Origin: Candidatus Staskawiczbacteria bacterium
GTDB taxonomy: Bacteria > Patescibacteriota > Minisyncoccia > Minisyncoccales > Staskawiczbacteraceae
Direction of reading: 5' to 3'
DNA: 64,000 nt
Assembly (NCBI GenBank): GCA_016196125.1
Contig: JACPYG010000004.1
Span: 138-64,137, forward strand
The first letter of the stretch is position 1. The number at the start of each line of letters is the position of its first letter. A model generated the notes under the pieces. The model was given only the letters and a program-made list of their open reading frames with translations. It had not been told where the DNA came from and searched no databases. The translations under genes were made by a program, and so were the position numbers. Positions 7,534 to 40,151 of this stretch are shown one piece after another.

Positions 7534-9273
7534 ATGGAACAAATAGAAAAAATTAGGCATTCGTTGGCGCATATAATGGCGCAAGCCATTTTGGATTTTT
7601 GGCCTAAAACAAAATTAGGCATTGGCCCTGCAATTGAAAACGGGTTTTATTACGATATGGCTTTGCCCGCCGAAGCCCTTGGCGAAGGCGGGAATGAGGA
7701 ATTTCTCAAAAAAATCGAAGTACGAATGAAAGAACTGATAAAAGAAAATCAAAAATTTATCGGGAAAAAAGTAGCTAAAATTACAGCAAAAAGATTATTT
7801 AAAAATCAGCCATATAAATTAGAATTAATAAAAGAATTGCCGGGAAAAACCGTTGGAACTTACCAAAACGGAAATTTTTTAGATTTATGCAAAGGAGGCC
7901 ATATTTTAAACACAAAAGAAATTAGGCCAAATGCTTTCAAACTTACGAAAATTGCAGGGGCTTATTGGAAAGGCAGTGAAAAGAATAAAATGTTGACCCG
8001 TATTTATGGTTTAGCTTTTCAAACTGAAAAAGAACTGCAAGATTTTATAAAAATGCAAGAAGAGGCAGAAAAAAGAAACCATAGAATATTGGGACAAAAA
8101 TTAGATCTTTTTATTTTTTCTGATTTAGTGGGGCAGGGCTTGCCTTTATTTACTCCCAAGGGCACCATATTAAGAGATTTATTAGATTCTTATGTTTGGG
8201 AACTGCGCCGGGCAAAGGGCTATGAAAAAGTAGACATACCTCATATAACCAAAAAAGAACTTTATGAAACCAGCGGCCACTGGGATAAATTTAAAGACGA
8301 ACTTTTTAAAATAAATACCCGAGAAGGCCATGTTTTTGCCCTAAAGCCGATGAATTGCCCTCATCACATACAGATATTTTCCCGCAAAAAATGGAGCTAT
8401 CGCGAACTTCCGCAAAGATACGCATCTACAACCAAAATTTATAGAGATGAGCAAACAGGAGAACTTTTCGGATTATCAAGAGTGCGCTCTATCACTCAAG
8501 ATGACGCTCATGTATTTTGTAAATTTGAAGATATAGAAAACGAATTTTACAATGTGTGGGATATTATAGATAATTTCTATGGAACATTTGGATTTAAACT
8601 CAAAGTACGATTATCTTTAAGAGATCCTAAAACTCCAGAAAAATATCACAGTCTGCCGGAATATTGGGATCGGGCCGAAGAAATGCTAAGAAACATTATT
8701 AAAAAAAGAGAAATAATAAACAGTGAAGCTAAGGGCGAAGCGGCATTTTATGGCCCCAAAATAGATTTTATTGCCACTGATTCAATAGGACGAGAATGGC
8801 AAGTTGGAACAATTCAGCTGGATTTTGTGCAACCCAAAAAATTTAAACTTTATTATGCTTCAGACAAAGGAGAAGAACCTGTCGTAATTATTCATACCGC
8901 CATTATGGGTTCTATCGAAAGATTTTTGTCTATTTTAATAGAACATTACTCAGGAGCTTTTCCGGTTTGGCTTTCTCCGGTGCAAGTTTGCGTAGTTCCA
9001 ATTTCAGAAAAACATTTAGAATACGCCAATAAAATTAAGAAAGATTTAGAGAATAAAAATATACGCGCAGAATTAAAAAACGAAAATGAAACTTTGGGCA
9101 AAAAAATAAGAGAGGCTGAAATACAGCGCATCCCCTACCTTTTGATTATTGGCGATAAAGAAATACAAGCGCAATCAGTAAGCGTAAGGCAAAGAGACAA
9201 AGGAGACGTTGGAATTATAAATTTAGAAAAATTTATAGAAAAAATCACAGAAGAAATAACAAAAAAAATTTAA
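7534..9273 (+). CDS. thrS: threonyl-tRNA synthetase (no TGS domain)
   Basis: IRHSLAHIMAQA (editing/SAD HxxxH), class II motifs RDEQTGELFGLSRVRSITQDDAHVF and GSIERF. I prefer the ATG at 7534 (MEQIEK) over the TTG at 7483 used by the track. Confidence 0.9.
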   Translation: MEQIEKIRHSLAHIMAQAILDFWPKTKLGIGPAIENGFYYDMALPAEALGEGGNEEFLKKIEVRMKELIKENQKFIGKKVAKITAKRLFKNQPYKLELIKELPGKTVGTYQNGNFLDLCKGGHILNTKEIRPNAFKLTKIAGAYWKGSEKNKMLTRIYGLAFQTEKELQDFIKMQEEAEKRNHRILGQKLDLFIFSDLVGQGLPLFTPKGTILRDLLDSYVWELRRAKGYEKVDIPHITKKELYETSGHWDKFKDELFKINTREGHVFALKPMNCPHHIQIFSRKKWSYRELPQRYASTTKIYRDEQTGELFGLSRVRSITQDDAHVFCKFEDIENEFYNVWDIIDNFYGTFGFKLKVRLSLRDPKTPEKYHSLPEYWDRAEEMLRNIIKKREIINSEAKGEAAFYGPKIDFIATDSIGREWQVGTIQLDFVQPKKFKLYYASDKGEEPVVIIHTAIMGSIERFLSILIEHYSGAFPVWLSPVQVCVVPISEKHLEYANKIKKDLENKNIRAELKNENETLGKKIREAEIQRIPYLLIIGDKEIQAQSVSVRQRDKGDVGIINLEKFIEKITEEITKKI

Positions 9274-9281
9274 AACTATAA

Positions 9282-9419
9282 AGGCGGAAATAAGATATTT
9301 TTCAATTCGGGCTCGGGTCGCGAGAGTTTCCCGCTTTGCGGGAGCTCCCGACCTAGGCCGTGGGTTTGCCTGCCGGCAGGCAGGCAGGGCGGACGTTGAA
9401 AAATATCTTATTTCCGCCT
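9282..9419. mobile_element. MITE-like element with 24-bp terminal inverted repeats around a GC-rich palindromic core
   Basis: aggcggaaataagatatttttcaa (9282-9305) is the exact reverse complement of ttgaaaaatatcttatttccgcct (9396-9419). The core contains tcccgctttgcggga, cgggagctcccg and gcctgccggcaggc. Flanking direct repeat aaaactat occurs at 9272-9279 and 9420-9427. Confidence 0.6.
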
Positions 9420-9429
9420 AAAACTATCT

Positions 9430-11052
9430 ATGGCACAACTTTCCGAAGCCACGCAAAGGTTAATTGCAAAATACAATCTTTGGCAACAATCTCAAAAACC
9501 GAAAGAAGGCGTATCAACAATACATGTTGATGAAGTAGTCTCAAGGGTTGCCGCTTTTTACGAATACATAAGAACAATTGTTGACTGGAAAGAAGAACAC
9601 TTGATGCGCAGGTCTGCCATCATCAGAAAACTAAAAAGAAGATTTTTAAACTTAGAATTAAATAATTTTTCTGAAAAAGAAGAAATTGCAGAACCTTTAA
9701 TATTAGAATTAATTAGAGGAGGACACTTCCCCAACGATAATATTGAAGAATCAAAAATAGCAGATGTCAAAAAAGTAATAGACAAGTATATTTTTATTTT
9801 AAAAAACAGCATTGAGAATAAAAAAGGCAGAGCCGGACTGCAATTTTACAACTGGCTTTTGGAAATTGCCGCCTGTGAAATAGAAGAAACTTTAGCCACA
9901 TACACAAAAGAAACCGCCCTGATAGATTATATGTTTGATTTGATGAAAGAAAGAATAAGAGTCGGCGAAGATGTTTTTAAAAGAAAGTTATTAAAAGAAG
10001 AAGAAAAAGACATACAAATATATATTGCCGTACAACAATCCTTGTTTAAATTCGATAAGCCGATTATCAGCTATAATCTTATTAAATATAAATACCCTCA
10101 ATGGAAAAATACCGATGAGGATTTGATTTTAAAAATATCTCAAAATATCCACAAAATATGGAAAAGAATTGAAAAAGATTTATTGCATCCCCTAAATAAA
10201 AAGTTTTACGCAATCTGCGAAAAATATGATACTCCTTATTTGCTTTTAGGAGATATCTTATCTCAAAAAAGCGCCATAGAGACCGGCAGAGAAATCCAGA
10301 AACCGCCTGTTTTAGAGCAACTGTTAAGATCGTCTTATTCTAAAAGATTATCAACTCTCAAAGCAAGGCTTTCTCGGGCAGCCGTTTATTCTACTATATC
10401 AATTTTTATCACAAAAGTTCTTTCTCTGTTAATTTTAGAAATAATTTTATTTAAAGTTTTTGAGGAAAATTTCAATATAATAATTTTAGCAACAGATGTT
10501 TTGTTGCCTACTATCTTAATGTTTATTTTAGTGGCGACAATCAAGCTTCCTTCAGATAAAAATTTAAGTCTGGTAATAGTGGAAACAATGAAAATTGTTT
10601 ATCAAAATGAAAAAACAGATATTTATGATATAAAAATCCTCAAAAAAAGAGGAGTTATTACCAGAATGATCATTTCTTTTGTTTATCTTTTGGGAGCTTG
10701 TGTTTCTTTTGGTTTTATCTTTTGGATTTTTTATTTGTTCAAATTCTCTACCACTTCCATTATCATAAACTTTATATTTATTGCCTTAATTATTTTTGCC
10801 GGAATGGCAATAAGAAAAAGAGCAGAAGAACTTACTGTAGAAAACGACTATGACGGTTTTTTAAGTTTTTTATCCGATATATTATTTTTACCTGTTGCCG
10901 GAGTAGGACGATGGCTATCAAATAAATGGAAAAGGTATAATGCGGTTTCCGCTTTTTTTAATGCTTTAATTGACATGCCATTTTCTGTTTTTGTGGAGTT
11001 TTTAGAAAGATGGCGATATTTCATAAAAGAAAGAAAAGAAGAAATCCGTTAA
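9430..11052 (+). CDS. hypothetical multi-pass membrane protein (540 aa)
   Basis: ORF track. Soluble charged N-terminal half and several hydrophobic helices in the C-terminal half. No motif recognised. Confidence 0.6.
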   Translation: MAQLSEATQRLIAKYNLWQQSQKPKEGVSTIHVDEVVSRVAAFYEYIRTIVDWKEEHLMRRSAIIRKLKRRFLNLELNNFSEKEEIAEPLILELIRGGHFPNDNIEESKIADVKKVIDKYIFILKNSIENKKGRAGLQFYNWLLEIAACEIEETLATYTKETALIDYMFDLMKERIRVGEDVFKRKLLKEEEKDIQIYIAVQQSLFKFDKPIISYNLIKYKYPQWKNTDEDLILKISQNIHKIWKRIEKDLLHPLNKKFYAICEKYDTPYLLLGDILSQKSAIETGREIQKPPVLEQLLRSSYSKRLSTLKARLSRAAVYSTISIFITKVLSLLILEIILFKVFEENFNIIILATDVLLPTILMFILVATIKLPSDKNLSLVIVETMKIVYQNEKTDIYDIKILKKRGVITRMIISFVYLLGACVSFGFIFWIFYLFKFSTTSIIINFIFIALIIFAGMAIRKRAEELTVENDYDGFLSFLSDILFLPVAGVGRWLSNKWKRYNAVSAFFNALIDMPFSVFVEFLERWRYFIKERKEEIR

Positions 11053-11055
11053 AAA

Positions 11056-11967
11056 ATGAAGCCATCAGACAAGCTTATCGTAATTTTAGGACCGACAGCA
11101 TCCGGGAAAACACAACTGGCAATCAAACTTGCCAAAAAATTTAATGGTGAAATTATTTCAGCTGATTCAAGGCAGGTTTATAAAGGAATGGATATCGGTT
11201 CCGGCAAAGTAACAAAAAAAGAAATGCAGGGAATTCCCCACTATCTTTTGGACGTAGCTAATCCCAAAAATAAATTTACCGTAAGCCAATACCAAAAATT
11301 GGTTCAAGTCGCAATAAAAAAAATACGCAAAAAAGATAAAATTCCATTTTTGGTTGGCGGCAGCGGTTTTTATATACAATCAATAGTTGACGAAATTATT
11401 ATTCCCGAGGTTAAACCGGATTGGAAATTAAGAAAAGAACTTAGAAAAAAATCCGCAAAAGAACTTTTCTTGATGTTAAAAAATTTAGACCCGGAGAGGA
11501 CGAAAACAATTGATGAAAATAATCCCCGCAGGTTAATACGCGCGCTTGAAATTGTTATAAAAACCGGCGCAGAGGTACCGGCACTAAATAAATTAAAAAA
11601 ACCGGCATTCAATGTTTTAGAAATTGGCATCGCCAAATCCAAAGATGAGATAAAAAAACTAATCAATAAGAGATTATTAAAAAGATTAAATCAGCCAAAT
11701 GGCGGAAAAATGGTTTTGGAGGTTAAAAATCTTAAAACCTCTGGCCTTTCGTTTAAACGTTTAGAAGAATTTGGATTAGAATACCGCTTTGTCGCGCAAT
11801 ATTTACAAAATAAAATAACTTATCAAGAAATGGTTGATAAGTTAAAAAAAGAAATAGAAAATTTTGCCAAGCGCCAAATGACTTGGTTTAAAAGAGATAA
11901 AAGAGTCCACTGGATAAAAAACTACAAAGAAGCGGAAGAATTAGTTAAAAGCTTTTTGAGAAGTTGA
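11056..11967 (+). CDS. miaA: tRNA dimethylallyltransferase
   Basis: GPTASGKT P-loop, SADSRQVYKGMDIGSGK, ends in TGA. Confidence 0.9.
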   Translation: MKPSDKLIVILGPTASGKTQLAIKLAKKFNGEIISADSRQVYKGMDIGSGKVTKKEMQGIPHYLLDVANPKNKFTVSQYQKLVQVAIKKIRKKDKIPFLVGGSGFYIQSIVDEIIIPEVKPDWKLRKELRKKSAKELFLMLKNLDPERTKTIDENNPRRLIRALEIVIKTGAEVPALNKLKKPAFNVLEIGIAKSKDEIKKLINKRLLKRLNQPNGGKMVLEVKNLKTSGLSFKRLEEFGLEYRFVAQYLQNKITYQEMVDKLKKEIENFAKRQMTWFKRDKRVHWIKNYKEAEELVKSFLRS

Positions 11968-13457
11968 CCGATTTTTTCCGGATTTGCTGTTCCGCGAGTT
12001 GCTGACATTACTTGTCCCGACAAGAATTGCAAAGCATTTTGCTTGCCGTTTTTATAATCTTTGACTGCTTTTGGATTTTTAAAAATTACTTCTTTTACAA
12101 TTTTTTCCATTTCGCCCTCGTCTTTCATTTGCATCCAATTATTACTATCAATAACCGATGACGGATCAGATCCGGTATTAAACATATCGCTTAAGACCAT
12201 TTTGGCAATTTTGCTTGATATTTCTTCTGAATAAATCATTTTAATAAATTCAGCAAAGTTTTCTGGCGTAATTTTAAATTCAGTTTCTATAAATTGACTG
12301 TTTTGCAACAGTCCCTGAACATCAGAAATAAGATAATTTGAAGTAATCTTAATTATTTTTTTAAATTCACTATCCGTATTTTGCTCAATCCATTCATCGA
12401 GCTCCGATATTACCTTTTCAAAATACTCACTTAGGTCTTTATTTGCAACAAATATCTCAATCGTATTTTGGTCCAAGCCATATTCTTTGATAAATCTTGC
12501 TCTTTTTTGTTCTGGCAATTCCGGAATTTCGCTTTTTATTTTTTCAATAAATTTTTCATCAAAATGCAGGGGCGGCAAATCCGGTTCTGGAAAATACCTG
12601 TAATCATGAGCCGATTCTTTTTCTCTTTGAGAAAAAGTTATTTCTTTTTTATCGTGCCAACCTCGGGTTTCCTGCACAACCTTACCGCCCGATTCTAAAA
12701 TTTCTTGCTGGCGCAAAATTTCAAAATCAATTGACTTTTCAACAACTTTAAATGAGTTCAAATTTTTAATTTCAACTTTAGTGCCAAAACTCTTATTTTT
12801 ACTAAGGCTTATGTTAACTTCTATCCTCATTTGCCCCTTTTCCATATCGGCATCAGAAACTCCCAAATACTTTAAAATTACCTGAAAATCTTGGGCAAAT
12901 TCCCTGGCTTCACTTCCCGAAATTATATCCGGATCGGTTACCAACTCCATTAAAGGAACACCGGCCCTATTTAAATCAATCAATGAATAATCAACCCCTT
13001 CCGGATGTATTAATTTACCGGTATCTTCTTCCAAATGTATTCTTGTTATGCCTATTTTTCTTCGCCCTTCCGAAGCTTTACTGTGTCCGTCCGAAGTCTT
13101 TGACGAAGAAGGATGCGAAGGAGGGTTGTCTCCAACTTTTAAATAACCTTTTTGGCACAAGGGCTGGTCATATTGTGAAATCTGATATCCTTTTGGCAAA
13201 TCCGGATAAAAATAATTTTTCCTGTCGAACTTTGAATCTTTGGCAATTTGGCAATTTAAAGCCAATCCGGTTTTAATAACCTTTTTTATTGCTTCTTCAT
13301 TGGCAACCGGCAAAGCGCCCGGCTGGGCGGTGCAAACCTCGCAAATATTATAATTTGGCCGTTTTTCATCGGGATCATTTTTACACGAGCAAAACATCTT
13401 TGAATTTGTTTTAAGCTCTGCATGTATTTCCAAACCAATAGTGGGCTTATATTTCAT
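11922..13457 (-). CDS. gatB: Asp/Glu-tRNA amidotransferase subunit B, with a GC-rich insertion of about 20 aa
   Basis: PTIGLEIHAEL, IGITRIHLEEDTGK, C-terminal YqeY-like tail. ATG at 13457 (MKYKPTIGLEIH) is preferred over the TTG at 13475. Confidence 0.9.
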   Translation of the reverse strand: MKYKPTIGLEIHAELKTNSKMFCSCKNDPDEKRPNYNICEVCTAQPGALPVANEEAIKKVIKTGLALNCQIAKDSKFDRKNYFYPDLPKGYQISQYDQPLCQKGYLKVGDNPPSHPSSSKTSDGHSKASEGRRKIGITRIHLEEDTGKLIHPEGVDYSLIDLNRAGVPLMELVTDPDIISGSEAREFAQDFQVILKYLGVSDADMEKGQMRIEVNISLSKNKSFGTKVEIKNLNSFKVVEKSIDFEILRQQEILESGGKVVQETRGWHDKKEITFSQREKESAHDYRYFPEPDLPPLHFDEKFIEKIKSEIPELPEQKRARFIKEYGLDQNTIEIFVANKDLSEYFEKVISELDEWIEQNTDSEFKKIIKITSNYLISDVQGLLQNSQFIETEFKITPENFAEFIKMIYSEEISSKIAKMVLSDMFNTGSDPSSVIDSNNWMQMKDEGEMEKIVKEVIFKNPKAVKDYKNGKQNALQFLSGQVMSATRGTANPEKIGQLLKKLLTNSSASL

Positions 13458-13494
13458 ATTATGTGAATATATCAAAATTCAATTAAATTTACAA

Positions 13495-13524: not shown

Positions 13525-13542
13525 TAACTAAATAATTTTTAT

Positions 13543-19068: not shown

Positions 19069-19494
19069 TTATTCTTTTATTTCTATGCCCATATTTTTTG
19101 CTGTTCCGGCAATTATTTTCATTGCCTGCTCAATATCTTTGGTGTTTAGGTCTTCTATTTTTTTCTGGGCAATTTCTTTTATCTGAGATTTCGTTACTGT
19201 GCCCACTTTCTTTTTATTGGGGGTACCAGAACCTTTTTCAATGCCAGCCGCCTTTTTTAATAATTCTGAAGCCAGGGGTGATTTAAGCCTATAAGTATAG
19301 GTTCTATCAGCATATATGGTTACCGAAGTCGGAACTATAAAACCCGACATTTCTTTTGTCGCATCATTAAATTTCTGGCAGAATTCTCCCATATTTAATC
19401 CGTATTTAGCCAAAGCTGGCCCAATCGGAGGAGCCGGAGTCGCCTTGCCTGCCGGAATTTGTATGTCTACTACTGCTTTTATTTCTTTTGCCAT
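19069..19494 (-). CDS. rplK: ribosomal protein L11
   Basis: MAKEIKAVVDIQIPAGKATPAPPIGPALA. Start taken at 19494 rather than 19554. Confidence 0.95.
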   Translation of the reverse strand: MAKEIKAVVDIQIPAGKATPAPPIGPALAKYGLNMGEFCQKFNDATKEMSGFIVPTSVTIYADRTYTYRLKSPLASELLKKAAGIEKGSGTPNKKKVGTVTKSQIKEIAQKKIEDLNTKDIEQAMKIIAGTAKNMGIEIKE

Positions 19495-22249: not shown

Positions 22250-22957
22250 TTATTTTTTCTTATTGTTTAATCTATTTATTTCTTCTTGAATTTCTTTTAT
22301 AACTTCCTTATTACCAATTTCTCCATCTAAGCTAAAGATTATAAATACTTTTCCTTTATATTTTTTCTCAAAATCAATAAAATTTTTCTTCATCCTTTCT
22401 GATATAGAATAATTACCGAAATTTGCTTTAGCTGTAATTGGTTTAATTTGTATACCAAAAGCATACTTACCGACAAATCCTAAGTAATCTATATCGCCAG
22501 CATGGTCTAAATCGGTTTCACTTTCAACAAAATTTACGTCTGGAAAATATTTTGACAATTCATCATTTACTACTGATTTTTCACGAATAAAACCATCGTA
22601 AGTACGATTTATTGTTAAATTATAAATATAATCTATACAGTCCTGTAGTGATAATTCGCTAAATGCTGATTGCCATTCGGGAATCACAACTTCTGTAATT
22701 TTTTCATGCAAACGTTCGCCCAATTCTTTCAAAACGTCTGTGGTTATTTTTACTGGTTCTTTATTTTCAGTATAAGCCTTTTCGAAGTACCATTTTTCCC
22801 ATTCATCTATTATTTTAGGTTGACATTCTCTTATAAGCGCCATAACCGCGCCAACTTTATTTGGTCGCGATAATTGGTAAGTCTGGCAGGCATAATTTAA
22901 AACTTTTTCTTTTTTACCAAATTCCATAGAAAACTTTTTAGAAGTTTTATTTGACAT
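22250..22957 (-). CDS. putative type II restriction endonuclease (PD-(D/E)xK-like)
   Basis: Overlaps the methyltransferase by 11 nt. Candidate catalytic DHAGDIDYLG...FGIQIKP. Possibly MjaI-like, which I cannot verify. Confidence 0.5.
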   Translation of the reverse strand: MSNKTSKKFSMEFGKKEKVLNYACQTYQLSRPNKVGAVMALIRECQPKIIDEWEKWYFEKAYTENKEPVKITTDVLKELGERLHEKITEVVIPEWQSAFSELSLQDCIDYIYNLTINRTYDGFIREKSVVNDELSKYFPDVNFVESETDLDHAGDIDYLGFVGKYAFGIQIKPITAKANFGNYSISERMKKNFIDFEKKYKGKVFIIFSLDGEIGNKEVIKEIQEEINRLNNKKK

Positions 22958-24236
22958 AATTATATTTTAGTAAACTATTAAATTTATTCTTATACTTGTA
23001 TTCCATTTCTGTATTAGGCAAAGCAAATCCATCTTTAATCATATGTGCGTTAATAAAAGTTTTATTTTGTAAATAAAGATAACATAACAAATTATTATAT
23101 TTATCGTATTTTAAAGCATCAAATTTCATAAAAACCCTCTGTCCCTTAGTTTTATTAATTAAATACTCCACTGCTTCACCATTAATTTTTGGATTTTCTT
23201 TTATTCCGAGTAAACGAATTATTAAACCATTATTTAAGAGTATTTTTTCTGGGTCTAATATTTCTTTAACAGTATAAAATTCATCTTTTATATCATAGCT
23301 GTTTTTATCTATTTTTGATCCAAATTGTAATTTTTTGAGATCTATCTTTTTATCTAATTTGTGGGGGTCTTTAAATATGTAAGGTAATTGATTTATTCTT
23401 TCATCAAAGTTAATATTTTTTGGCGCGTCGACAAATTCTAATGAATCGTTCTTAGAATTAATAACACCTATTTTATTTTTTATAATTGTTAGGAATTCTT
23501 GGTTAATTTCGTATCCAACTGAGTTTCTGCTAAGATTTTTTGAAACCAAAGAAGTTGTTCCACTCCCCAAGAATGGATCCAATACTGTATCGCCAACAAA
23601 TGAAAACATTTTTATTAGTCTTCTTGGTAATTCTTCTGGAAATACTGCTATATGCCCATCCTGTCTCGCCCCTCCAAAATTCCAATGACCTTGAAAATAT
23701 TGATTCCACTCCTCTTTAGTTAGTTTAGATTCTTCTTTTATTATTCTATCAACTTTTGGTCCATCGCTTTGTTTTTTAAATATTAGAATAAATTCATAAT
23801 CTAATTTTATAATTCCATTTCTTGGATAAGGGAAACTACCCATTATTGTAGCTCCTCCGGTAGTATTCATAGTAGTAGTTTTTTGCCAAATGATTGAACC
23901 CATATAATCAAATCCTATTGTTTCGCAGAACTTAATTATCTCTGTTCTTATTGGAATAACCTTATAGCGACCATAATAAACAGCACGAGCAAATTGATCG
24001 CCAATATTTATGCAAAGACGACAACCATTTTCTAAAACTCGATGACATTCATTCCAAACTAAGTTTAAATAGTTAATATATTTTTCGTAACTATCATTAA
24101 AACCAATCTGATTATCTGAGCCATAATCTTTTAGTTGCCAATATGGAGGTGATGTAATAATAAGTTGAATAGAGTTATCTTTTAACTCTTTCATATCCCT
24201 TGAGTCACTTATTATAATTTTATGATTGGTTTTCAT
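22947..24236 (-). CDS. beta-class N4-C/N6-A DNA methyltransferase with C-terminal SNase-like domain
   Basis: Motif IV ITSPPYW lies near the N-terminus and motif I DPFLGSGTT lies later. The last 90 aa or so (GEAVEYLINKTKGQRVFMKFD...NNLLCYLYL...NAHMIKDGFALP) resemble a thermonuclease fold. Confidence 0.8.
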   Translation of the reverse strand: MKTNHKIIISDSRDMKELKDNSIQLIITSPPYWQLKDYGSDNQIGFNDSYEKYINYLNLVWNECHRVLENGCRLCINIGDQFARAVYYGRYKVIPIRTEIIKFCETIGFDYMGSIIWQKTTTMNTTGGATIMGSFPYPRNGIIKLDYEFILIFKKQSDGPKVDRIIKEESKLTKEEWNQYFQGHWNFGGARQDGHIAVFPEELPRRLIKMFSFVGDTVLDPFLGSGTTSLVSKNLSRNSVGYEINQEFLTIIKNKIGVINSKNDSLEFVDAPKNINFDERINQLPYIFKDPHKLDKKIDLKKLQFGSKIDKNSYDIKDEFYTVKEILDPEKILLNNGLIIRLLGIKENPKINGEAVEYLINKTKGQRVFMKFDALKYDKYNNLLCYLYLQNKTFINAHMIKDGFALPNTEMEYKYKNKFNSLLKYNYVK

Positions 24237-24353: not shown

Positions 24354-26477
24354 TTAAATATCCAAATTCTTCACGCTCTTTGCGTGCGTCTGGATGAACT
24401 TCTTTCTTGGACCTACTTCCTCGCCCATTAGAATATCAAATATTTTATCGGCTTCTCTGGCTTCCTCAACTTTCACCTGCAATAACAATCTGTTTTCCGG
24501 ATTCATTGTTGTTTCCCAAAGCTGTTCGGCATTCATTTCTCCCAAACCCTTATACCTTTGAATTGATATATTTTTATCTTTACCAATTTCTTTTACAAGT
24601 TTGTCTTTTTGCTCGTCATTGTAAGCATAACTTATGCTTTTTCCTGATTGAATTTTGTAAAGCGGCGGCTGGGCTATGTAAATATAACCCGCCTCAACTA
24701 TTGATTTAAAGTATCTGTAAAACAATGTCAAAAGCAAAGTTCTAATATGAGCTCCGTCAACATCGGCATCGGTCATGATTACTATGCGGTGATATCTTAA
24801 TTTTTCTATGTCAAAATCTTCGGCTACTGCGGTACCCAAGGCAATAATCAAAGATTTAATTTCTTTTGAAGCCAGCATTTTGTCTAATCTGGCTCTTTCC
24901 ACATTTAATATTTTACCCCTTAAAGGCAATATTGCCTGAAATCCCCTGTCTCTGGCTTGCTTGGCCGAACCTCCGGCCGAATCTCCCTCAACTATGTAAA
25001 GTTCTGAATCTTCCGGCTTTTTTGACAAGCAATCAGCCAATTTTCCCGGCAAAGCCAAACCCTCTAAAATTCCCTTTCTCAAAACTGTCTGGCGGGCCGC
25101 TTTGGCCGCCAATCTTGCTTTTGTGGCCAAAAGGCAGTTTTCAACAACAGCTCTGGCATCTTGGGGATATCTTTCTAAATAATCGGCCAATCCTTCCGAA
25201 ACTGCCGTTTCTACAGCGTTTTTAGCTTCTGGATTGCCTAATTTTGCTTTTGTTTGGCCTTCAAACTGCGGAGTTCTTATTTTTACAGAAACAACGGCCG
25301 TTAAGCCTTCTCTTACGTCGTCACCGGTAAAATTTTCATCTTTTTCTTTTAAAAATCCTTCCCGCCTTGCATAGTCATTTAAGCATCTTGTTAATGCAGT
25401 GCGAAAACCGGAAATATGAGTTCCGCCGTCAATGGTGTAAATGTTATTGGCAAAAGATTCTTCGGCGCATTCCATTTCTTGGGTATATTGGAAAGCGGCC
25501 TCTACATAAACATCATTTTTTGACACAGCAACCGAAAACACGTTTGGGTGGCGCGGCGTATTGCTTTGGACCAAGTATTTCACATAAGAAGAAACTCCTC
25601 CTTCAAAATAAAAAGTGTAGCTTGATTCTTTGCCTTTTATTCTTTCATCAGCCAAAGAAATTTTTACCCCTTTTGTTAAATATGCCTGCTGGCGCAAATG
25701 GTTCATAATTCTTTTTGCGTCGTATTTTATTTCTGGAAAAATTTGCGGGTCTGCGTCAAAGGCAACAGAAGTTCCTGTTTTTTTGCTGTCGCCTGCTTTT
25801 TTAACCGGCGACTTGGGTATTCCCCTGAAATATTCTTGAACATATTTTCCGCCGTCTCTTTGAACCTCGGCTTCCATAAAGGTAGACAAAGCGCAAACAA
25901 CCGAAACTCCAACGCCGTGCAATCCGCCCGAAACTTTATAGGCATCTCCGCCAAACTTGCCTCCTGCGTGCAGGGTTGTCATAACCGTTTCTAAAGCCGA
26001 CTTTTTTGTATCTGCGTGTTTTTCTACCGGAATGCCTCTGCCGTCGTCGGAAATTTTTACTCTGTTGTTTGGCAACAAAACAACCTCAATGCTTTTGGCA
26101 TATCCTGCCATTGCTTCGTCGAGTGAATTATCTACCACTTCCCAAATTAAGTGATGAAGCCCGTCTATGCCAGTTGAACCAATATACATTCCCGGCCTTT
26201 TTCTTACGGGTTCCAAACCCTTTAAAACATAAATGTCTTTAGCGGTGTATTCATCGTCTTTTTTGATTTTCTTTGGTTCCGGAGGCGCATATGCGACTGT
26301 TGATTCTTGCTTAACCTCGGCCTTTTCCGCCTTGGGTGGAATCCCGCCAGAGGCGGCGGTCTTTTCCCATGGCTTTGCCTTTGGGCTTTTATCCTTATCT
26401 TTTTTTATTTTCTTTCCTCGCCCTTCCGAAGCCTTGGCGAATGAGGGTTCTTCTGCGTCTTTTATATTTATTTTCAT
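24354..26477 (-). CDS. gyrB: DNA gyrase subunit B with a Lys/Pro/Ala-rich N-terminal extension of about 75 aa
   Basis: VLKGLEPVRKRPGMYIG, GGLHGVG, EGDSAGG, PLRGKILNV, 707 aa. Confidence 0.95.
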   Translation of the reverse strand: MKINIKDAEEPSFAKASEGRGKKIKKDKDKSPKAKPWEKTAASGGIPPKAEKAEVKQESTVAYAPPEPKKIKKDDEYTAKDIYVLKGLEPVRKRPGMYIGSTGIDGLHHLIWEVVDNSLDEAMAGYAKSIEVVLLPNNRVKISDDGRGIPVEKHADTKKSALETVMTTLHAGGKFGGDAYKVSGGLHGVGVSVVCALSTFMEAEVQRDGGKYVQEYFRGIPKSPVKKAGDSKKTGTSVAFDADPQIFPEIKYDAKRIMNHLRQQAYLTKGVKISLADERIKGKESSYTFYFEGGVSSYVKYLVQSNTPRHPNVFSVAVSKNDVYVEAAFQYTQEMECAEESFANNIYTIDGGTHISGFRTALTRCLNDYARREGFLKEKDENFTGDDVREGLTAVVSVKIRTPQFEGQTKAKLGNPEAKNAVETAVSEGLADYLERYPQDARAVVENCLLATKARLAAKAARQTVLRKGILEGLALPGKLADCLSKKPEDSELYIVEGDSAGGSAKQARDRGFQAILPLRGKILNVERARLDKMLASKEIKSLIIALGTAVAEDFDIEKLRYHRIVIMTDADVDGAHIRTLLLTLFYRYFKSIVEAGYIYIAQPPLYKIQSGKSISYAYNDEQKDKLVKEIGKDKNISIQRYKGLGEMNAEQLWETTMNPENRLLLQVKVEEAREADKIFDILMGEEVGPRKKFIQTHAKSVKNLDI

Positions 26478-30236: not shown

Positions 30237-30245
30237 ATATTTTTT

Positions 30246-30272
30246 CCGCCTTCGCCGGTTGGCGAATGGCGG
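30246..30272. repeat. GC-rich hairpin between the two receiver genes
   Basis: ccgccttcgcc-ggtt-ggcgaatggcgg. It shares the 11-mer ccgccttcgcc with the reverse complement of the thrS GC patch at 7665-7692. Confidence 0.6.
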
Positions 30273-30313
30273 ATTTTAATTTAAGATAAATACTCTTTTA
30301 GGAGTATTTATTT

Positions 30314-34508: not shown

Positions 34509-34517
34509 ATAATTTTT

Positions 34518-34590
34518 ACCCCGTTAGAAGTCTTATTATATTTTCAACACGATAAATTTTTTCTTATTTTATACAGACTTCTAACGGGGT
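34518..34590. repeat. inverted repeat, CCCCGTTAGA family, copy d (arms 34518-34533 and 34575-34590)
   Basis: accccgttagaagtct and agacttctaacggggt form a 16-bp perfect inverted repeat with a 41-nt spacer. It fills the gap between the pilin stop (34590) and the PilX-like start (34508). Confidence 0.85.
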
Positions 34591-35117: not shown

Positions 35118-35143
35118 GTTTATAATGTTTAGAAAGTGGGGGG
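35061..35143. repeat. inverted repeat, GTGGGGGG family, spanning the pilin start (arms 35061-35073 and 35131-35143)
   Basis: ccccccactctct pairs with agaaagtgggggg at 12 of 13 positions. The ATG at 35117 sits in the 57-nt loop. The downstream arm encodes the SGG-L cleavage motif. Confidence 0.7.
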
Positions 35144-35156
35144 TAAACCCCGCTTT

Positions 35157-35708
35157 TTATTCATGCCAATTAGTAAGATACATAATTACTTTAGATGTTT
35201 TATTTGGCCATGCAACGGTCACGGTAACTTTTATGGTATCTGGGTCATTATGTGATTGGTTGTAATTATCTTCTATATTATTTGTTGCAGGGTCTCTTGA
35301 AACATTATCAAAAACAATTTGTCTCGTAAAAATACCTGTTGTTTCTGTTCCTTGGGCTAAATTCCATTTATTAGGATTTGAACTTGTATCCAAAAAAATA
35401 TGATACGGATTATTGATTCCTTTATTGACCGTGCCCAAACCGTTTACAAACCAATCCGTGCCGTCGCGAAAACTTCTTAGTGATTCAATTTCTTCTTTTA
35501 TTAAAGAATCTGCCTGGTTTGTATTTGTTATTAAAGAAGAAATATTCAACGACATAGTTCCTATGGACACAATGGTAATAAAAACAATGCTGATAATTGC
35601 AATTGATATTAAAATATCCAAAAGAACAAACCCCCTTTTTTTATGGAATATGGAATATAGAAAATAGAAAATAGAATAACAACTGTGATTTTTTGTTATG
35701 TGTTTCAT
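35157..35708 (-). CDS. pseudopilin with an unusually long 25-aa leader
   Basis: KKRG-FVLLDILISIAIISIVFI. The leader is encoded by low-complexity ttctattttctattttctat sequence. Confidence 0.65.
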   Translation of the reverse strand: MKHITKNHSCYSIFYFLYSIFHKKRGFVLLDILISIAIISIVFITIVSIGTMSLNISSLITNTNQADSLIKEEIESLRSFRDGTDWFVNGLGTVNKGINNPYHIFLDTSSNPNKWNLAQGTETTGIFTRQIVFDNVSRDPATNNIEDNYNQSHNDPDTIKVTVTVAWPNKTSKVIMYLTNWHE

Positions 35709-35726
35709 GTTATGTGTTATGTGATA

Positions 35727-36647
35727 TTATTGCCAGACAAAATTTGAAACATAAATAGACGAATTAGCAGTTGTCAGTCCGTCTGCTGAATATTGCGCAA
35801 GATACCCGGAACTGTCTGCAGAAATTGTAATTGTGAGGCTTTTGTCGTTAAATCTCCTGTCTCTGTGAATGCTAAATTGCGTGTCCGGGTTGTTTAATCT
35901 ATTGGTGTGAATTCTTATTGTTTGATTTGCGCCTCCAACATTGATGATTCCCGACCAATCAATCTGTCCCGCAAATAAACTTTGGCTTATTGGAATTGAT
36001 TGTATTGCCTGGCCGCTATTAAAATTCAATACTATATTTTCATTATTAACATCAATTAATCTGCTGTAATCAAATTGCAAGTGCCTTGAATCTTTGACTC
36101 TGTCATCGTCTGACAAAGCCGCAGGAACGTTAAAACTGATTGTGCCGGCATTTGATATATAGGCAGTTTTGATTTGGCTTGTATCTGACTTTAATCTTAA
36201 AGAAACACTGCCTGCCGCTTGGGTCGCGCCGGTCAGCTTATCAAAAACTATTTCATTTGGACCGCCCAGGTCAATCGCAAAAAACTCCACTTTTTCAGAT
36301 AAAAAATAAGTTTGGTCTGCCAAAATATCTCGCAAAGCATAATCAGACCCTTTAAATAATATGTATTTATTAGGTGAAACTGATTGGTCTAAATAAACTC
36401 CGTATTGGCTGTTGTTTTCAGAAGACAAAGTTCTGCTTTGGGCAAGCTTTAAAATATTTGTAAATTCTTGAATTCCATTGTCTAAATCAGATTTATTTTT
36501 AATGTAATAAAAAGAAACGATTGGCGCTGCAATCAAAACAGTTAAAATCAAAATAACAACAATTACTTCAATAAGGGTAAACCCCCCACCACTTTCACTT
36601 GATAATCGAAATTTGTTTTTTTGTTTATTTTCAATTTTAAAAATCAT
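35727..36647 (-). CDS. type IV pilin (major-pilin-sized, 306 aa from ATG 36647)
   Basis: MIFKIENKQKNKFRLSSESGGG-FTLIEVIVVILILTVL. The track ORF extends to 36722. Confidence 0.8.
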   Translation of the reverse strand: MIFKIENKQKNKFRLSSESGGGFTLIEVIVVILILTVLIAAPIVSFYYIKNKSDLDNGIQEFTNILKLAQSRTLSSENNSQYGVYLDQSVSPNKYILFKGSDYALRDILADQTYFLSEKVEFFAIDLGGPNEIVFDKLTGATQAAGSVSLRLKSDTSQIKTAYISNAGTISFNVPAALSDDDRVKDSRHLQFDYSRLIDVNNENIVLNFNSGQAIQSIPISQSLFAGQIDWSGIINVGGANQTIRIHTNRLNNPDTQFSIHRDRRFNDKSLTITISADSSGYLAQYSADGLTTANSSIYVSNFVWQ

Positions 36648-36692
36648 AAATAATTTAACAATTATAGCGTGAAAGTGGTGGGGGGTAAACCC
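36575..36692. repeat. inverted repeat, GTGGGGGG family, spanning the pilin start (arms 36575-36598 and 36669-36692)
   Basis: gggtaaaccccccaccactttcac pairs with gtgaaagtggtggggggtaaaccc at 22 of 24 positions (18 contiguous). The 70-nt spacer holds tataat and the ATG at 36647. Confidence 0.85.
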
Positions 36693-36726
36693 ATTATTCT
36701 TAAGAGAAGAAAAATTCATCATAAAA

Positions 36727-37932
36727 TTATTGAATTGAATTCAATGAAGAATATATTGGCACAATTACCGAAAAAGCAAAAAAACCAACCGCAAGACCCA
36801 GTAAAATTATCAAAGCCGGTTCTATTACAATAGATACTTTTTCAACGGCATCAATAGCCTCTTTCTCGTAAAAATCCGCTAATTTCTTCAAAATATCAGA
36901 TGTCTTTCCTGTTTCTTCGCCAACTTCAATCATTTCCATTACGCCAATAGGAAAAATATCCTGATGATATCTGAGTGAATTAGACAATTTTTCCCCTTTG
37001 GTAACTTTTTTTGAGGCCTCAATTACAGCTTTTCTAAAATAATAATTACCGACAGTTTCAGAAGTAATTTCCAGGGACCTTACGATTGAAACTCCAGATA
37101 TAAGAAGCGAACTTAACGAACGAATTAAAAATGCAGCATTATCTTTTTTAATAATCTGGGAAATAAAAGGCATTCTTATCAGAAAAGTATCCAATAACCA
37201 CTTTCCTTTTTTGGTTCTCAATGAAAGCCCTGCGATAATAATTAAAAGTAAAAATATCAAAGCCACTACATACCATTTTGTTGAAATAAAATCCCCGACA
37301 TCAAAGAAAATTTTTGTATATATGGGAATGTCAACATTCAAATCGGTAAAAAATGACTTTAAATCAGGCATAACGAAAACAATGACTATTACGGCAACAA
37401 TCAGCATAGTCGCCAAAACCACAGCCGGATAAATCATTGCATTATTTATTTTAGATTTTAATTCATGCTCTTTGCCAAGCTGTAAAGATAAAATCTGAAA
37501 AACTTCTTCCAAGGTTCCCGATTCTTCTCCGACTTTTACCATATTTTGAAAAAAATTAGAAAAAATATCGCCATGCGCGCTCATGGCAGAAGAAAGGTTT
37601 TCTCCCTTGCTAATTCTTTCTTTTATATCCAGCAGGGCGTTTTTTAACTTTTTATTTTTTGTTTGGGCGGACAAAATGCCAAAACTTTTCACCAAAGGAA
37701 GACCCGTGGAAAACATTACCCCCAAATTTCTTATCATTATTATTTTTTCAGTAAAAGAAACTTTGGAAAAGCTAAATCTGCGTTTAATTTTTTTACTTTC
37801 AGAATCCGTCCTAATCAAAACCATGCCTTGGCTTTTAAGTTTTTGGGCGAGTTGGCTTTCATTTTTTGCCTCCAAACTTCCCCTTTGGGTTTGGCCATCA
37901 AGAGATTTAGCTGTATAAAAATAAACTGGCAT
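36727..37932 (-). CDS. pilC: type IV pilus platform protein PilC (GspF family)
   Basis: Duplicated GspF domains, three TM segments, 401 aa. Confidence 0.9.
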   Translation of the reverse strand: MPVYFYTAKSLDGQTQRGSLEAKNESQLAQKLKSQGMVLIRTDSESKKIKRRFSFSKVSFTEKIIMIRNLGVMFSTGLPLVKSFGILSAQTKNKKLKNALLDIKERISKGENLSSAMSAHGDIFSNFFQNMVKVGEESGTLEEVFQILSLQLGKEHELKSKINNAMIYPAVVLATMLIVAVIVIVFVMPDLKSFFTDLNVDIPIYTKIFFDVGDFISTKWYVVALIFLLLIIIAGLSLRTKKGKWLLDTFLIRMPFISQIIKKDNAAFLIRSLSSLLISGVSIVRSLEITSETVGNYYFRKAVIEASKKVTKGEKLSNSLRYHQDIFPIGVMEMIEVGEETGKTSDILKKLADFYEKEAIDAVEKVSIVIEPALIILLGLAVGFFAFSVIVPIYSSLNSIQ

Positions 37933-37934
37933 AA

Positions 37935-38355
37935 CTTTAGAAAATAGAACTTAGAAAATAGAAAATAGAATATCTATTTAATTAAGAAATTATTAAGGAT
38001 TTTCATTACTTCTAAAATATCATCTTCGATATTTTTAAAATCTATTAAAGGATATAAAATTTTGGCAATCTCTATTTGGCTTTCCAGTTCCGAACCGGAG
38101 CCAAAGGCAATAGCTAAAAATTGTTGTTTTTCCTTATTGTGAAATCTATGATAGCTTTCTGCGATATTAGAAGAAATTGAAATAACTGCGCGTCTCATTT
38201 GGCTCGTTAATCCATATAATTCTGAACGAGGAAAACCGTCAGTTATCTTGTAAATTTTTACCGCTAAATCTCTTGACTTCTGCAGACAATTAAATCTTTA
38301 AATGATTTTGTAGCCATTTTTTAATTCTATTTTCTACTTTCTATTTTCTAGATTC
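37935..38355. mobile_element. inverted-repeat-flanked four-helix-bundle cassette between pilB and pilC
   Basis: Left end tagaaaatagaacttagaaaatagaaaatagaat (37939-37971). Right end attctattttctactttctattttctagattc (38324-38355) is its imperfect reverse complement, with 13 terminal bases perfect. Confidence 0.6.
37974..38317 (-). pseudogene. four-helix-bundle protein (23S rRNA IVS protein / Avd-like family) with a 1-nt frameshift
   Basis: Frame 1 from ATG 38317 reads MATKSFKDLIVCRSQEI-stop. The other frame continues QKSRDLAVKIYKITDGFPRSELYGLTSQMRRAVISISSNIAES. Restoring one G (gtc tgG cag) yields the canonical LIVWQKS. Confidence 0.7.
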
Positions 38356-40151
38356 TACTCTATGATAACCCTTAAAACTTCTTCTATTGAAGTTAATCCT
38401 TTCACGGCTTTAACAAAACCGTCTTCAATCATTGTTCTCATTCCGTCTTTTTTTGCCTGAATTGTAATTTCTCTTGTGGAAGTTTTTTGGACAATTAATT
38501 TTTTTATTTTTTCGTTCACTGTCAGAACCTCAACAATTCCAATTCTGCCTTTATAGCCGTCGGGCGAGTCTTTAGACGGTTTTGGCCTGTAAAGTATGAC
38601 ATCTTCTAATGTATCGCCGTTTTTTACTAATTTTTCTTCTTTTAATATCTGTAAAACTCTGTCTAAATCGCAATATCTTGCCAGATTTTTCAAATGTTCT
38701 GGCTTTAATTTATATTTTTCTTTATCGCCATGGAATTTTCTGACTAATCTTTGGGCTATAATCACATTTAAGGTAGACGAAATTAAAAAAGGTTCGGCTC
38801 CCATGTCAATCAATCTCGGTATCGCTCCTGCCGCCTCTGTGGTGTGGAGAGTTGATAAAACCAAATGCCCGGTTAAGGCGGCATTAATAGCCAATCCTGC
38901 CGTTTCGCTGTCTCTGATTTCTCCAACCATAATAATATTGGGGTCTTGCCTGACTAAAGCCCTTAAACCAGATGCAAAAGTCAGCCCTATTGCAGTATTA
39001 ACTTGAGTTTGATTGATTCTTGGCATCCTATATTCAATAGGGTCTTCTACGGTGGAAATATTAACATCAGGGGTATTAATAATATCCATCATTGCGTAAA
39101 GGGTGGTTGTTTTACCGGAACCAGTGGGTCCTGTAATCAATATCATTCCTGTTGGCCTAATCAGGTTATTGCGTATTTGTTCAAGGGCCGCTCCTGTAAA
39201 ACCTAATTTTTCTAAATTTTGGACTATTGCATTTTCGGCTAACAGCCTCATTACAACTTTTTCACCGTTAAAAACAGGCAGAACAGACACCCTTACGGAA
39301 TATTTATAGTCATCTGTTTCAATTTTAAACCTGCCGTCTTGGGGCAGCCTGTGTTCGTCAAGTTTTAAATTTGAGAGAACTTTAATTCTGGCAACGATTA
39401 TATAAGAGCTTGTTATCGGCAAAGCCATAACTTTACGGAGCATGCCGTCAATCCTAAAACGCACTGAAATTTCTTTTTCCAATGGTTCAATATGAATATC
39501 AGATGCTCCCTGTAAAATTGCATGTTTTAACAAAGCATCAACAATCCTTATAATCGGCAGTTCTTGAGTGGCCTTCATTAAATCCCCACTTTTCCCGACA
39601 TCAATTTTTTCCTGCCTGCCGGCTCCTGCCTGCCGGTAGGCATGGGGCAGGCTCCCTCCAATATAATCAATCAACTTTGGGTCTGCTTCCATAATATCCA
39701 TAAATTCCACATCCAATGGCTTTTGATATTGGTTCAAAACGCTTTTTATTCCTTCCGGAGTGGTAAGCCTCGGCAAAATTTTTAAAAGCGGGTCTGTTTT
39801 TTTAATAAACTCAACAGTTATTAAATCTTCCGGGTCGAGCATGGCAACTTCAAGATTATTGCCCAGTTTTCTGAAAGCAATTATATTATGGACTCTTGCA
39901 ATTTGCTCTGGAATAATATTCAGTATTTCTGGCGGAATGGTTTCTTTTCCCACATCCACAAAAGGAATACCCAAAAGATATGCCTGGAATTTTGTCAGTT
40001 TTTCCTGGCCAATAAGCTTCTCTGAAACCAAAACTTCTCCAATATTTTTATTGAGTTTCTTTGCTTTATCTAACGCTTTGTTAAAATTTTCTTCCGTTAT
40101 CAGCTCCGCATCCAAAAGAAATTTTTTAAGCCGCTGTGGTTCAACATCCAT
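38355..40151 (-). CDS. pilB: type IV pilus assembly ATPase PilB (GspE family)
   Basis: Walker A GPTGSGKTTT, Asp box, VGEIRD, His box, tetracysteine region replaced. 598 aa. Confidence 0.95.
   Translation of the reverse strand: MDVEPQRLKKFLLDAELITEENFNKALDKAKKLNKNIGEVLVSEKLIGQEKLTKFQAYLLGIPFVDVGKETIPPEILNIIPEQIARVHNIIAFRKLGNNLEVAMLDPEDLITVEFIKKTDPLLKILPRLTTPEGIKSVLNQYQKPLDVEFMDIMEADPKLIDYIGGSLPHAYRQAGAGRQEKIDVGKSGDLMKATQELPIIRIVDALLKHAILQGASDIHIEPLEKEISVRFRIDGMLRKVMALPITSSYIIVARIKVLSNLKLDEHRLPQDGRFKIETDDYKYSVRVSVLPVFNGEKVVMRLLAENAIVQNLEKLGFTGAALEQIRNNLIRPTGMILITGPTGSGKTTTLYAMMDIINTPDVNISTVEDPIEYRMPRINQTQVNTAIGLTFASGLRALVRQDPNIIMVGEIRDSETAGLAINAALTGHLVLSTLHTTEAAGAIPRLIDMGAEPFLISSTLNVIIAQRLVRKFHGDKEKYKLKPEHLKNLARYCDLDRVLQILKEEKLVKNGDTLEDVILYRPKPSKDSPDGYKGRIGIVEVLTVNEKIKKLIVQKTSTREITIQAKKDGMRTMIEDGFVKAVKGLTSIEEVLRVIIE

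Follow-up and report, generated by a model that had tools for sequence, protein, structure and literature searches.

Short GC-rich palindromic elements inserted in frame into housekeeping genes of a Patescibacteria genome

The stretch of DNA analysed here, called the window below, comprises 64,000 nucleotides of a metagenome-assembled genome (MAG) of Candidatus Staskawiczbacteria, an uncultivated, ultra-small member of the Patescibacteria, or candidate phyla radiation (CPR). Its GC content is 35%. Among its housekeeping genes, dnaE (4303-7482), thrS (7483-9273) and miaA (11056-11967) lie on the plus strand, gatB (11922-13475) and gyrB (24354-26477) on the minus strand, and pilB (38355-40151, minus strand) is part of a type IV pilus operon. 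Short patches of GC-rich DNA interrupt thrS, gatB, gyrB and pilB. A first-pass annotation of the window had proposed that these patches are in-frame insertions, and ortholog alignments bear this out: the insertions are real and lineage-specific, and the closest orthologs are devoid of them. They do not, as had been thought, form a single set of related patches. Two families are present, family 1 in thrS, gatB and gyrB, and family 2 in pilB and in the core of a MITE, a miniature transposable element with inverted repeats, located next to thrS. The analysis supports the view that short GC-rich palindromic elements were inserted in frame at variable sites of housekeeping genes. We read them as insertions because empty, filled and nested alleles form a series, because the same DNA is found in different frames and orientations, and because the stems covary.

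In thrS, the family 1 copy occupies positions 7662-7692 of the plus strand, in the sense orientation relative to the gene. It starts with a tag, TTTG (7662-7665), and continues with a hairpin, already recognised as such in the first pass, which we place at 7666-7692. The hairpin, CCCGCC-GAA-GCC-CTT-GGC-GAA-GGCGGG, encodes (L)PAEALGEGG and folds into an outer stem of 6 bp, an internal GAA/GAA loop and an inner GCC/GGC stem (-9.3 kcal/mol for the DNA fold, z = -2.5). The insert is missing in the closest ThrRSs (76-83% identity), and six ThrRSs at 61-70% identity carry PAEAL(R/F)EGG. At this site, two distant CPR genomes, L056 and L016, read CCCGCCGAAGCCTTGGCGAAGGCGGG and CCCTCCGAAGCTTTAGCGAAGGAGGG, respectively, and the window reads CCCGCCGAAGCCCTTGGCGAAGGCGGG. 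Between the window and L056, the hairpins are one loop nucleotide apart, so that the frame shifts (EALGEGG versus EALAKAG), and the two proteins are just 48% identical. In L016, the stem has a double compensatory change (CCCTCC/GGAGGG). The extra nucleotide that sets the frame differs in place, GCC-C-TTGG in the window versus GCCTTG-C-GC in the other ThrRSs. Every thrS copy is sense to the gene. A single ancestral insertion at this site was considered and not retained, since a neighbour-joining tree splits the carriers, with closest relatives that do not have the insert; this tree is star-like, and repeated loss could also have occurred.

In gatB, two copies of family 1 are found on the plus strand, one inside the other. 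The outer, older copy is antisense to the gene and is cut into a 5' half, TCGCCCTTCCGAAGCTTTA (13062-13080), and a 3' half, TGCGAAGGAGGGTT (13114-13127). Between them lies the younger, nested copy (13081-13113), 33 nt long, CTGTGTCCGTCCGAAGTCTTTGACGAAGAAGGA, which encodes PSSSKTSDGHS. Altogether the patch adds 21 amino acids which the three closest GTDB relatives do not have, the nearest GatB among GTDB representatives being 72% identical to that of the window. Where the relatives read LEI-GG-RKIGITR, the window reads LKVGDNPPSHPSSSKTSDGHSKASEGRRKIGITR. The allelic states of this loop form a series. It is empty in L084, as in 83 of the 120 closest GatBs; it contains one copy, TCGCCCTTCCGAAGCTTTATGCGAAGG(A/G)GGG (NPPSHKASEGR), in L083 and L082; and it contains one copy plus the nested copy in the window. 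The single-copy state (NPPSHKASEG) is common to seven GatBs of approximately 72-80% identity, and the nested copy is found in this genome only among the 120. It sits in the loop of the outer copy, after GCTTTA, and makes a clean 33-nt difference to L083, the flanks being otherwise near-identical. The first pass had suggested placing the inserts on structural models, and for GatB this was informative: in an AlphaFold model built with 85 homologs, residues 111-130 form a loop with a predicted local distance difference test (pLDDT) of about 31, between strands 101-108 and 133-144. The insert is thereby predicted to be a disordered loop.

The gyrB copy (26418-26449, plus strand, antisense to the gene) reads TCGCCCTTCCGAAGCCTTGGCGAATGAGGGTT and encodes PSFAKASEGRG. 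Together with the outer gatB copy, it forms one subfamily (TCGCCCTTCC...GAGGGTT). This is why the two genes share the identical 15-mer TCGCCCTTCCGAAGC that the first pass had spotted; it occurs exactly twice, at 13062 and 26418, and both occurrences read KASEGR on the minus strand. Unlike the thrS copy, the gatB and gyrB copies have degraded stems and no significant fold (z = -0.2 for gyrB). The gyrB patch is located within a Lys-rich N-terminal extension of about 75 amino acids, which must be coding sequence, as its MK(I/L)NIK start is conserved. At the position of the patch, L216 (92% identical) does not have PSFAKASEGRG, and L283 has EPSYARATDGQ. The extension contains a second GC-rich patch (26326-26373), encoding TAASGGIPPKA, with the hairpins TCCGCC-TTG-GGTGGA and CCGCC-AGA-GGCGG. 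Segments like it, of the form A(T/A)A(V/S/L)GG(V/I)P, are present in the relatives L219, L220 and L218. The whole extension looks like a mosaic of several short insert families.

The family 1 unit, of approximately 30 nt, consists of a CYTG tag, a covarying stem of 6 bp, the trinucleotides G(A/T)A and GAA facing each other, a GC/GC inner stem and a YTTR loop, the hairpin itself accounting for 26-27 nt and the tag for 4 nt. A logo made from 118 copies gives the consensus C-Y-T-G / Y-C-C-K / CCG-W-AGC-Y-TT-R-GCGAAGG / M-G-G-R, and conservation ends at positions -8 and +5. The string GTAG is confined to the hairpin arm, where about half of the copies have it (CCGTAGC); the 5' tag is C-Y-T-G. In contig 3300031566_013099 (L131, L161), CTTG followed by 26 nt is embedded seamlessly in arrays of 7-nt tandem repeats, which sets the unit at 30 nt. 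To our knowledge, none of the K-turn, the sarcin-ricin/loop-E motif, tRNA, 5S, SRP or tmRNA fragments, CRISPR repeats, integron attC sites or a mimic of 16S h23a fits the conserved positions. Only tRNA-Trp passed an Rfam gathering search over the whole window, and around the thrS hairpin the Rfam search yielded only chance-level matches (E >= 1.6).

A covariance model, R1, was built from eight seed copies, leaving out those of gyrB and gatB, and used for an unfiltered scan of the window. It recovered thrS with 38.4 bits (E = 6e-8), gyrB with 24.9 bits (E = 3e-4) and gatB, over 13087-13125, with 18.8 bits (E = 0.015). The relatedness of the three copies is therefore beyond chance. Four family 1 copies, all intragenic, are present in the window. 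Their density here is low, about 3 per 64 kb; related loci contain about one copy per 80-100 kb. When applied to 1.3 Mb of CPR loci, R1 detected 16 copies at E < 0.05, of which eight were seed copies and the other eight new to the model, and approximately 1 Mb of loci from close relatives gave 12 further copies in loci not scanned before. These copies lie in intergenic DNA and in the genes for ThrRS, MiaA, GatB (two sites), three MiaB-like proteins, one protein resembling ArgRS, another resembling PheS, and GyrB, which has three sites: its N-terminal extension, one at the C-terminus and, in two relatives, a loop close to residue 285. Both orientations occur, antisense copies outnumbering sense ones by about 3:1. 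The commonest frames are (S/P)-A-(F/S)-A-K-A-(S/T)-A-(D/G) in antisense and (P/S)-(A/S)-E-A-L-A-K-(A/E)-G in sense, which is what selection for harmless peptides would leave. Since the same DNA is found in both orientations and in different frames, the conserved unit is a DNA element rather than a peptide.

The strict core of family 1, CCGWAGCYTTRGCGAAGG, was found in at least 120 stretches of IMG/VR, as compared with 5 for a reversed-pattern control. Among the matches listed, this 18-nt core is carried by contigs of 30 to 71% GC, some of them giant-virus MAGs, in which the stems are AT-rich. The element is thus not particular to genomes such as that of the window. Pairing in the outer stem was measured on 114 distinct viral-contig copies. 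Paired cells made up 84% of the total; shuffling the partners lowered this to 63% (maximum 67.5%), and sliding them to at most 61%. At stem pair 1, 40 copies have G-C and 37 have T-A (chi-square p = 3e-27); the corresponding counts are 45 C-G and 42 T-A at stem pair 4, and 68 C-G and 41 T-A at the loop-closing pair. Covariation therefore maintains the family 1 hairpin in genomes that are very distant from one another. Within 34 kb of one viral contig, 5 strict copies are present, and, among the matches listed, 52% of within-contig pairs of copies have the same 4-nt stem versus 8% of pairs between contigs, a pattern that indicates local proliferation. Cultured phages (INPHARED) and plasmids (PLSDB), searched by blastn with the consensus element, gave only chance-level matches (E >= 0.3).

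Among the IMG/VR contigs, those of L100, L122, L154, L160 and L187 have 30-37% GC and share the invariant core CCGTAGCTTTAGCGAAGG. Three of these contigs carry GVMAG names (L122/L154, L160, L187), and L100 does not. Their copies have AT-rich stems (TTATATT/AATATAA), and a conserved GTTTTCCGA-like sequence is present upstream.

The patches had also been linked to intergenic hairpins of the window. This held for pilB and the MITE core, as described below, and was not confirmed for a near-perfect GC hairpin at 30245-30273, between two response-regulator genes. This hairpin shares TTGGCGAA.GGCGG with family 1, has TTC opposite GAA and is therefore fully paired (DNA fold of -14.2 kcal/mol, z = -5.0). 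R1 matches it through the stem alone (11.6 bits, E = 1.3). It may be a terminator-like hairpin or a variant family 1 copy.

Family 2 has the consensus CCTGCCTGCCGG(T/C)AGGCA(T/G)G, to which the pilB insert belongs and which is seen again in the MITE core and in other genomes. In pilB it occupies 39612-39653 on the plus strand, antisense to the gene, as 42 nt, CTGCCTGCCGGCTC + CTGCCTGCCGGTAGGCATGGGGCAGGCT. A unit of about 28 nt, CTGCCTGCCGGTAGGCATGGGGCAGGCT, is preceded by a 14-nt duplicate of its own 5' end; the tandem CTGCCTGCCGG repeat seen in the first pass is indeed present. The duplication brings the total to 42 nt and so restores the frame. The insert encodes 14 amino acids, SLPHAYRQAGAGRQ, which fall in the linker that joins the MshEN domain to the ATPase domain. 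It occurs once among the 120 closest PilBs, and is the sole insertion of at least 3 amino acids across a syntenic operon of about 12 kb, when compared with L210 (82% identical), where the empty site reads CAATTTTTTC/TCCTTC. In L056, a family-1-like hairpin within a CPR gene is bordered by the termini of the pilB insert, read in another frame. The family 2 unit is repeated several times in the viral contig L212, and a perfect palindrome of this family, CCTGCCTGCCGGCAGGCAGG, is found in L017, L026, L247 and L155, and also makes up the MITE core. Three of the four viral matches to a family 2 17-mer look like chance and were set aside.

The MITE (139 nt, 9280-9418) lies exactly between the thrS stop and the start of the gene that follows. 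Its terminal inverted repeats (TIRs, 9283-9305 and 9396-9418) are perfect over 23 bp, and it is flanked by a 9-bp direct repeat, or target-site duplication (TSD), TAAAACTAT, at 9271-9279 and 9419-9427. With its TIRs and TSD it qualifies as a MITE, unlike families 1 and 2. It folds as one long hairpin (-88.7 kcal/mol, a single ViennaRNA value with RNA parameters and no shuffle control). It is missing in L082, where no spacer separates thrS from the next gene, the stop of the former overlapping the ATG of the latter. None of the loci compared contained a second copy of the TIR. The GC-rich core of the MITE holds a family-2-like palindrome, GCCTGCCGGCAGGC (9368-9381). The connection drawn earlier between this core and pilB is thus supported, the two sharing a palindromic unit that recurs in other genomes. 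The string GCCTGCCGG is present 5 times in the window, where 0.11 occurrences are expected. Its match at 19447 was rejected as a member of the element, being a chance match to the coding sequence of 'PAGKA' in ribosomal protein L11, which we take to be a conserved segment of that protein.

Could the similarity between patches be a coincidence, arising from protein-level adaptation, chance GC-rich slippage insertions or an assembly artefact? Linkers with many Gly, Ala, Pro and Arg residues are encoded by GC-rich codons, the 9-11-mers common to the GC-rich islands were estimated to be near chance level, and the match at 19447 proved to be L11 coding sequence only. However, the same DNA serves as coding sequence in different frames and on either strand, the R1 E-values are significant, covariation is strong, and the reversed control gave 5 against at least 120 stretches. 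Moreover, the pilB insert is identical at the DNA level in an independent Logan assembly, L001, and the single-copy gatB allele is present in two other assemblies. Coincidence or artefact is extremely improbable, and is effectively refuted by these observations.

In different relatives, the ThrRS site, the GatB loop and the GyrB extension contain inserts of several unrelated families. This recurrence at the same sites is best explained by permissive sites acting as a filter, rather than by a strict target specificity. The other insert types encountered include an AT-rich one, KSQIPNPKSQTNSNDQN, as well as ARNASHSDAGG / ARNAVSTAGWHSVAG, ERTLTPSxGEG, ENLSIDKKPTSIEKP, PSTGSGQ, RDARVTREAGTPVL, FSAQGGPASGW, LFEPEGSQSRRP and LPAQAG (carriers P0013, P0017, P0029, P0272, P0281 and P0319; L258, L263, L265, L285, L237 and L014).

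We propose that the patches are copies of very small, non-autonomous hairpin repeats, similar to repetitive extragenic palindromes (REPs), that were inserted into the genome; this is probably the correct explanation. The agent behind their insertion, nesting and spread we infer by analogy. An enzyme acting in trans would recognise the folded, single-stranded hairpin together with its tag, and spread copies of it. A candidate would be a transposase of the HUH type (Y1 or Y2), as in the case of REPs and the REP-associated tyrosine transposases (RAYTs); that an HUH-type enzyme in particular mobilises these elements is possible but rather doubtful. Selection would then filter the products, retaining lengths in multiples of three, permissive sites and benign frames (S-A-F-A-K-A-S-A-D in antisense, E-A-L-A-K-A-G in sense). 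Copies would persist in essential genes where 5-21 extra residues land in a tolerant loop, linker or N-terminal extension. Such a filter would account for the repeated insertion at the same ThrRS, GatB and GyrB loops.

Several observations weigh against this explanation. No transposase was found next to the copies when open reading frames (ORFs) were clustered in 120 viral loci, including ORFs located at most 400 nt from copies; no ORF family was present in more than 12 loci, and the recurrent ones were structural genes of related phages. In the 64-kb window, Pfam detected no Y1 transposase. Over 2.5 Mb of loci, tblastn with approximate IS200/IS608 TnpA queries gave no match, although the sensitivity of this search is low. 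There is no TSD or TIR at the two exact empty/filled junctions, those of the nested gatB copy (family 1) and of pilB (family 2), the GTAG/CGTC tag is lacking, and the density of copies is low. No common target was seen beyond a T-rich 5' flank, flanks of copies being usually T-rich or ending in TTR. The 18-nt core is invariant from 30 to 71% GC, which is unusual, as REP families are normally lineage-specific. Finally, in five ThrRS genes of 58-78% mutual identity, synonymous sites within the hairpin are identical in 5 of 8 columns with invariant residues, versus 33 of 229 elsewhere (Fisher p = 0.003). This is beyond what selfish insertion followed by neutral decay predicts. In the same genes, GC at third codon positions is 0.60 in the hairpin versus 0.36 elsewhere. 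Three explanations remain for the conservation of the thrS stem: selection at the nucleotide level, copies refreshed by conversion, or a site struck more than once.

The thrS stem, with its synonymous conservation and GC-ending codons, would fit with a hairpin that is useful to its host, as a structural site of DNA or RNA under selection for protein binding, mRNA stability or pausing, and that is intragenic because intergenic space is scarce. A precedent for such a role is that E. coli REPs bind gyrase, IHF and Pol I. The thrS copies are all sense, and the invariance of the core across genomes of such different GC content would also be expected of a structural site. Yet elsewhere copies are found in both orientations (approximately 3:1 in favour of antisense), at unrelated positions and with no fixed place relative to gene ends. 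The closest relatives do without them, with no visible consequence, the gyrB and gatB stems are degraded and do not fold significantly, and the nested and tandem-partial copies resemble insertion debris. We consider a host-useful structural site to be an unlikely explanation.

The copies may also have spread without a dedicated transposase, by template switching, microhomology repair or gene conversion at stalled forks, or through DNA uptake by a competence pilus, hairpins being favoured templates. The missing TSD and the lack of a linked transposase would then need no explanation. At the thrS site, the 5' tag overlaps native TTR/CC codons, which suggests microhomology; partial tandem duplications are present in pilB, L110, L119 and L212; and a type IV pilus operon is encoded in the window. 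On the other hand, the 4-nt tag is conserved and unpaired and the internal mismatches do not vary, which points to a specific protein that recognises the element, and untargeted repair would hardly maintain identical cores in unrelated phyla and viruses. We regard a transposase-free origin as very unlikely, and favour mobilisation in trans of REP-like repeats.

Other features of the window deserve mention. The first 2,900 nucleotides (1-2900), with about 47% GC, have a composition very unlike that of the remaining window. They are built from tandem repeats of 93 nt (at least 12 copies) and 72-75 nt (at least 5 copies), which encode Cys-rich repeat proteins on the minus strand; a 586-aa ORF (1139-2899) has only a weak DUF7107 match. 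At about 12000, gene orientation flips from plus to minus, at the overlap of miaA and gatB, and the sign of the GC skew flips there too. This switch may mark the origin or the terminus of replication, or else the breakpoint of an inversion. The four family 1 copies are all on the plus strand, on both sides of the switch. Directly downstream of gyrB lies a restriction-modification pair. Its endonuclease (22250-22957) is MjaI-like, and its N4/N6 DNA methylase (22947-24236) carries a fused staphylococcal-nuclease domain. A lone gene for a '23S rRNA intervening sequence protein' (PF05635) is found in 40207-41032, beside tRNA-Trp (40958-41032) and far from any rRNA gene of the window. Two partial ORFs of class I (Trp/Tyr) tRNA synthetases, at 43091-43822 and 59873-60544, are separated by 16 kb; one covers only positions 94-243 of the Pfam profile, and the other positions 4-186. 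Both are in locally GC-richer DNA, near duplicated segments (45506-45741 and 47959-48194, 94% identical; 58191-58390 and 61071-61270, 97%; 59501-59585 and 60734-60818, 85%). These regions may correspond to split or disrupted genes, or to rearrangements. An HTH_23/HTH_32 ORF at 59462-59992 resembles the N-terminus of an IS630-type transposase.

Searches of a literature library gave no account of such elements for Patescibacteria, nor any relevant paper on the core DNA words or on six typical peptides. CPR proteins are known for unusual insertions and extensions, and unexplained short peptides such as FAKATADK, LRQGYGGQ and EALAKEG abound in their MAG annotations. The inserts provide a DNA-level source for part of these peptides, and annotators could flag them by means of the 26-position covariance model or the 18-nt core. 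The 30-nt unit of family 1 corresponds to 10 codons, and its GAA/CTTG form is free of stops in all six frames. If one family truly spans phyla, phages and giant viruses with an invariant core, this would point to a widespread, so far unrecognised enzyme or host factor acting in trans, and the family would count among the smallest elements known to colonise essential genes. The synonymous conservation in thrS raises the question of whether some copies were domesticated as structural sites in DNA or RNA.

The first-pass annotation had likened the patches to Rickettsia palindromic elements (RPEs). The likeness stands as far as behaviour is concerned: a small genome has palindromic repeats inserted in frame, at variable sites, in housekeeping genes that are unrelated to one another, and these repeats contribute surface peptides and leave the protein intact. 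It does not extend to the elements themselves. RPE-1-type elements measure approximately 100-150 bp and are found in Rickettsia only, and RPE-4 and RPE-6 are CGTC-tagged REPs (PMC10969869, PMC3733652). In contrast, family 1 copies are 26-33 nt long and family 2 units about 28 nt, some 30 nt compared with 100-150 nt, their build is REP-like, their sequence is unrelated to that of RPEs, and family 1 spans many phyla.

Short GC-rich hairpins in AT-rich genomes are also known from mitochondria, as the GC clusters of yeast and the byps of Magnusiomyces, with in-frame copies in VAR1 and nested or tandem copies. These belong to other sequence families, and byps are skipped by the ribosome, whereas the present inserts keep the frame and are presumably translated. 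In cyanobacteria, Elhai and co-workers reportedly described, in 2008, small dispersed repeats (SDRs) of 21-27 nt, with no known enzyme, which are said to be often nested or located in heptamer tandem repeats. Judging from their description, SDRs resemble family 1 in that they look mobile and are far below MITE size, and the family 1 copies of contig 3300031566_013099 likewise lie in 7-nt arrays. SDRs differ in that they have been reported from cyanobacteria only, and are mainly extragenic.

The closest parallel in structure is with REPs of the GTAG-3 type, such as the E. coli REP, made of a tag, a stem, a mismatch and a GC-flanked loop, in which the RAYT requires the tag and the mismatch (PMC3733652). 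Family 1 is likewise a GC-rich imperfect palindrome of 20-40 nt, with a terminal, unpaired 4-nt tag, a covarying stem of 6-7 bp, and non-complementary di- or trinucleotides between the stem and a short, GC-flanked loop. As with REPs, copies occur as singletons, dimers and clusters, are intergenic or intragenic, often in genes of DNA or RNA metabolism, and form genome-specific subfamilies. The first pass knew of no equivalent description for this kind of genome. Intragenic REPs have in fact been reported, sometimes at the same site in different species, although in other phyla and with another tag and core (Di Nocera et al. 2013, PMC3733652). The differences concern the tag, CYTG instead of GTAG or CGTC; the 18-nt interior, near-invariant across phyla and GC contents, whereas REP families are lineage-specific; the low density, the exclusively intragenic position of the clear copies of the window, and the fact that no RAYT gene was found in the sequence searched; and the hosts, which are Patescibacteria, uncultivated high-GC lineages and viral or giant-virus contigs, with none in cultured phages or plasmids. 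The elements are thus not RPEs, by size and sequence, and, by the tag, fall outside the definition of REPs. Tentatively, and with somewhat more doubt than confidence, we suggest that family 1 could represent an undescribed third superfamily of REP-like elements, 'CYTG-tagged', with a core conserved in Patescibacteria, in uncultivated bacteria of high GC content, in phage-like contigs and in MAGs of giant viruses. It would be mobilised by a widely shared enzyme and be a major source of the N-terminal extensions and inserted loops of housekeeping proteins in the CPR, with selection at the nucleotide level now acting on some of the copies. In their behaviour the elements otherwise follow what is known of RPEs and intragenic REPs; their interest lies in the conservation and breadth of the core, and in the explanation they offer for insertions in CPR proteins.

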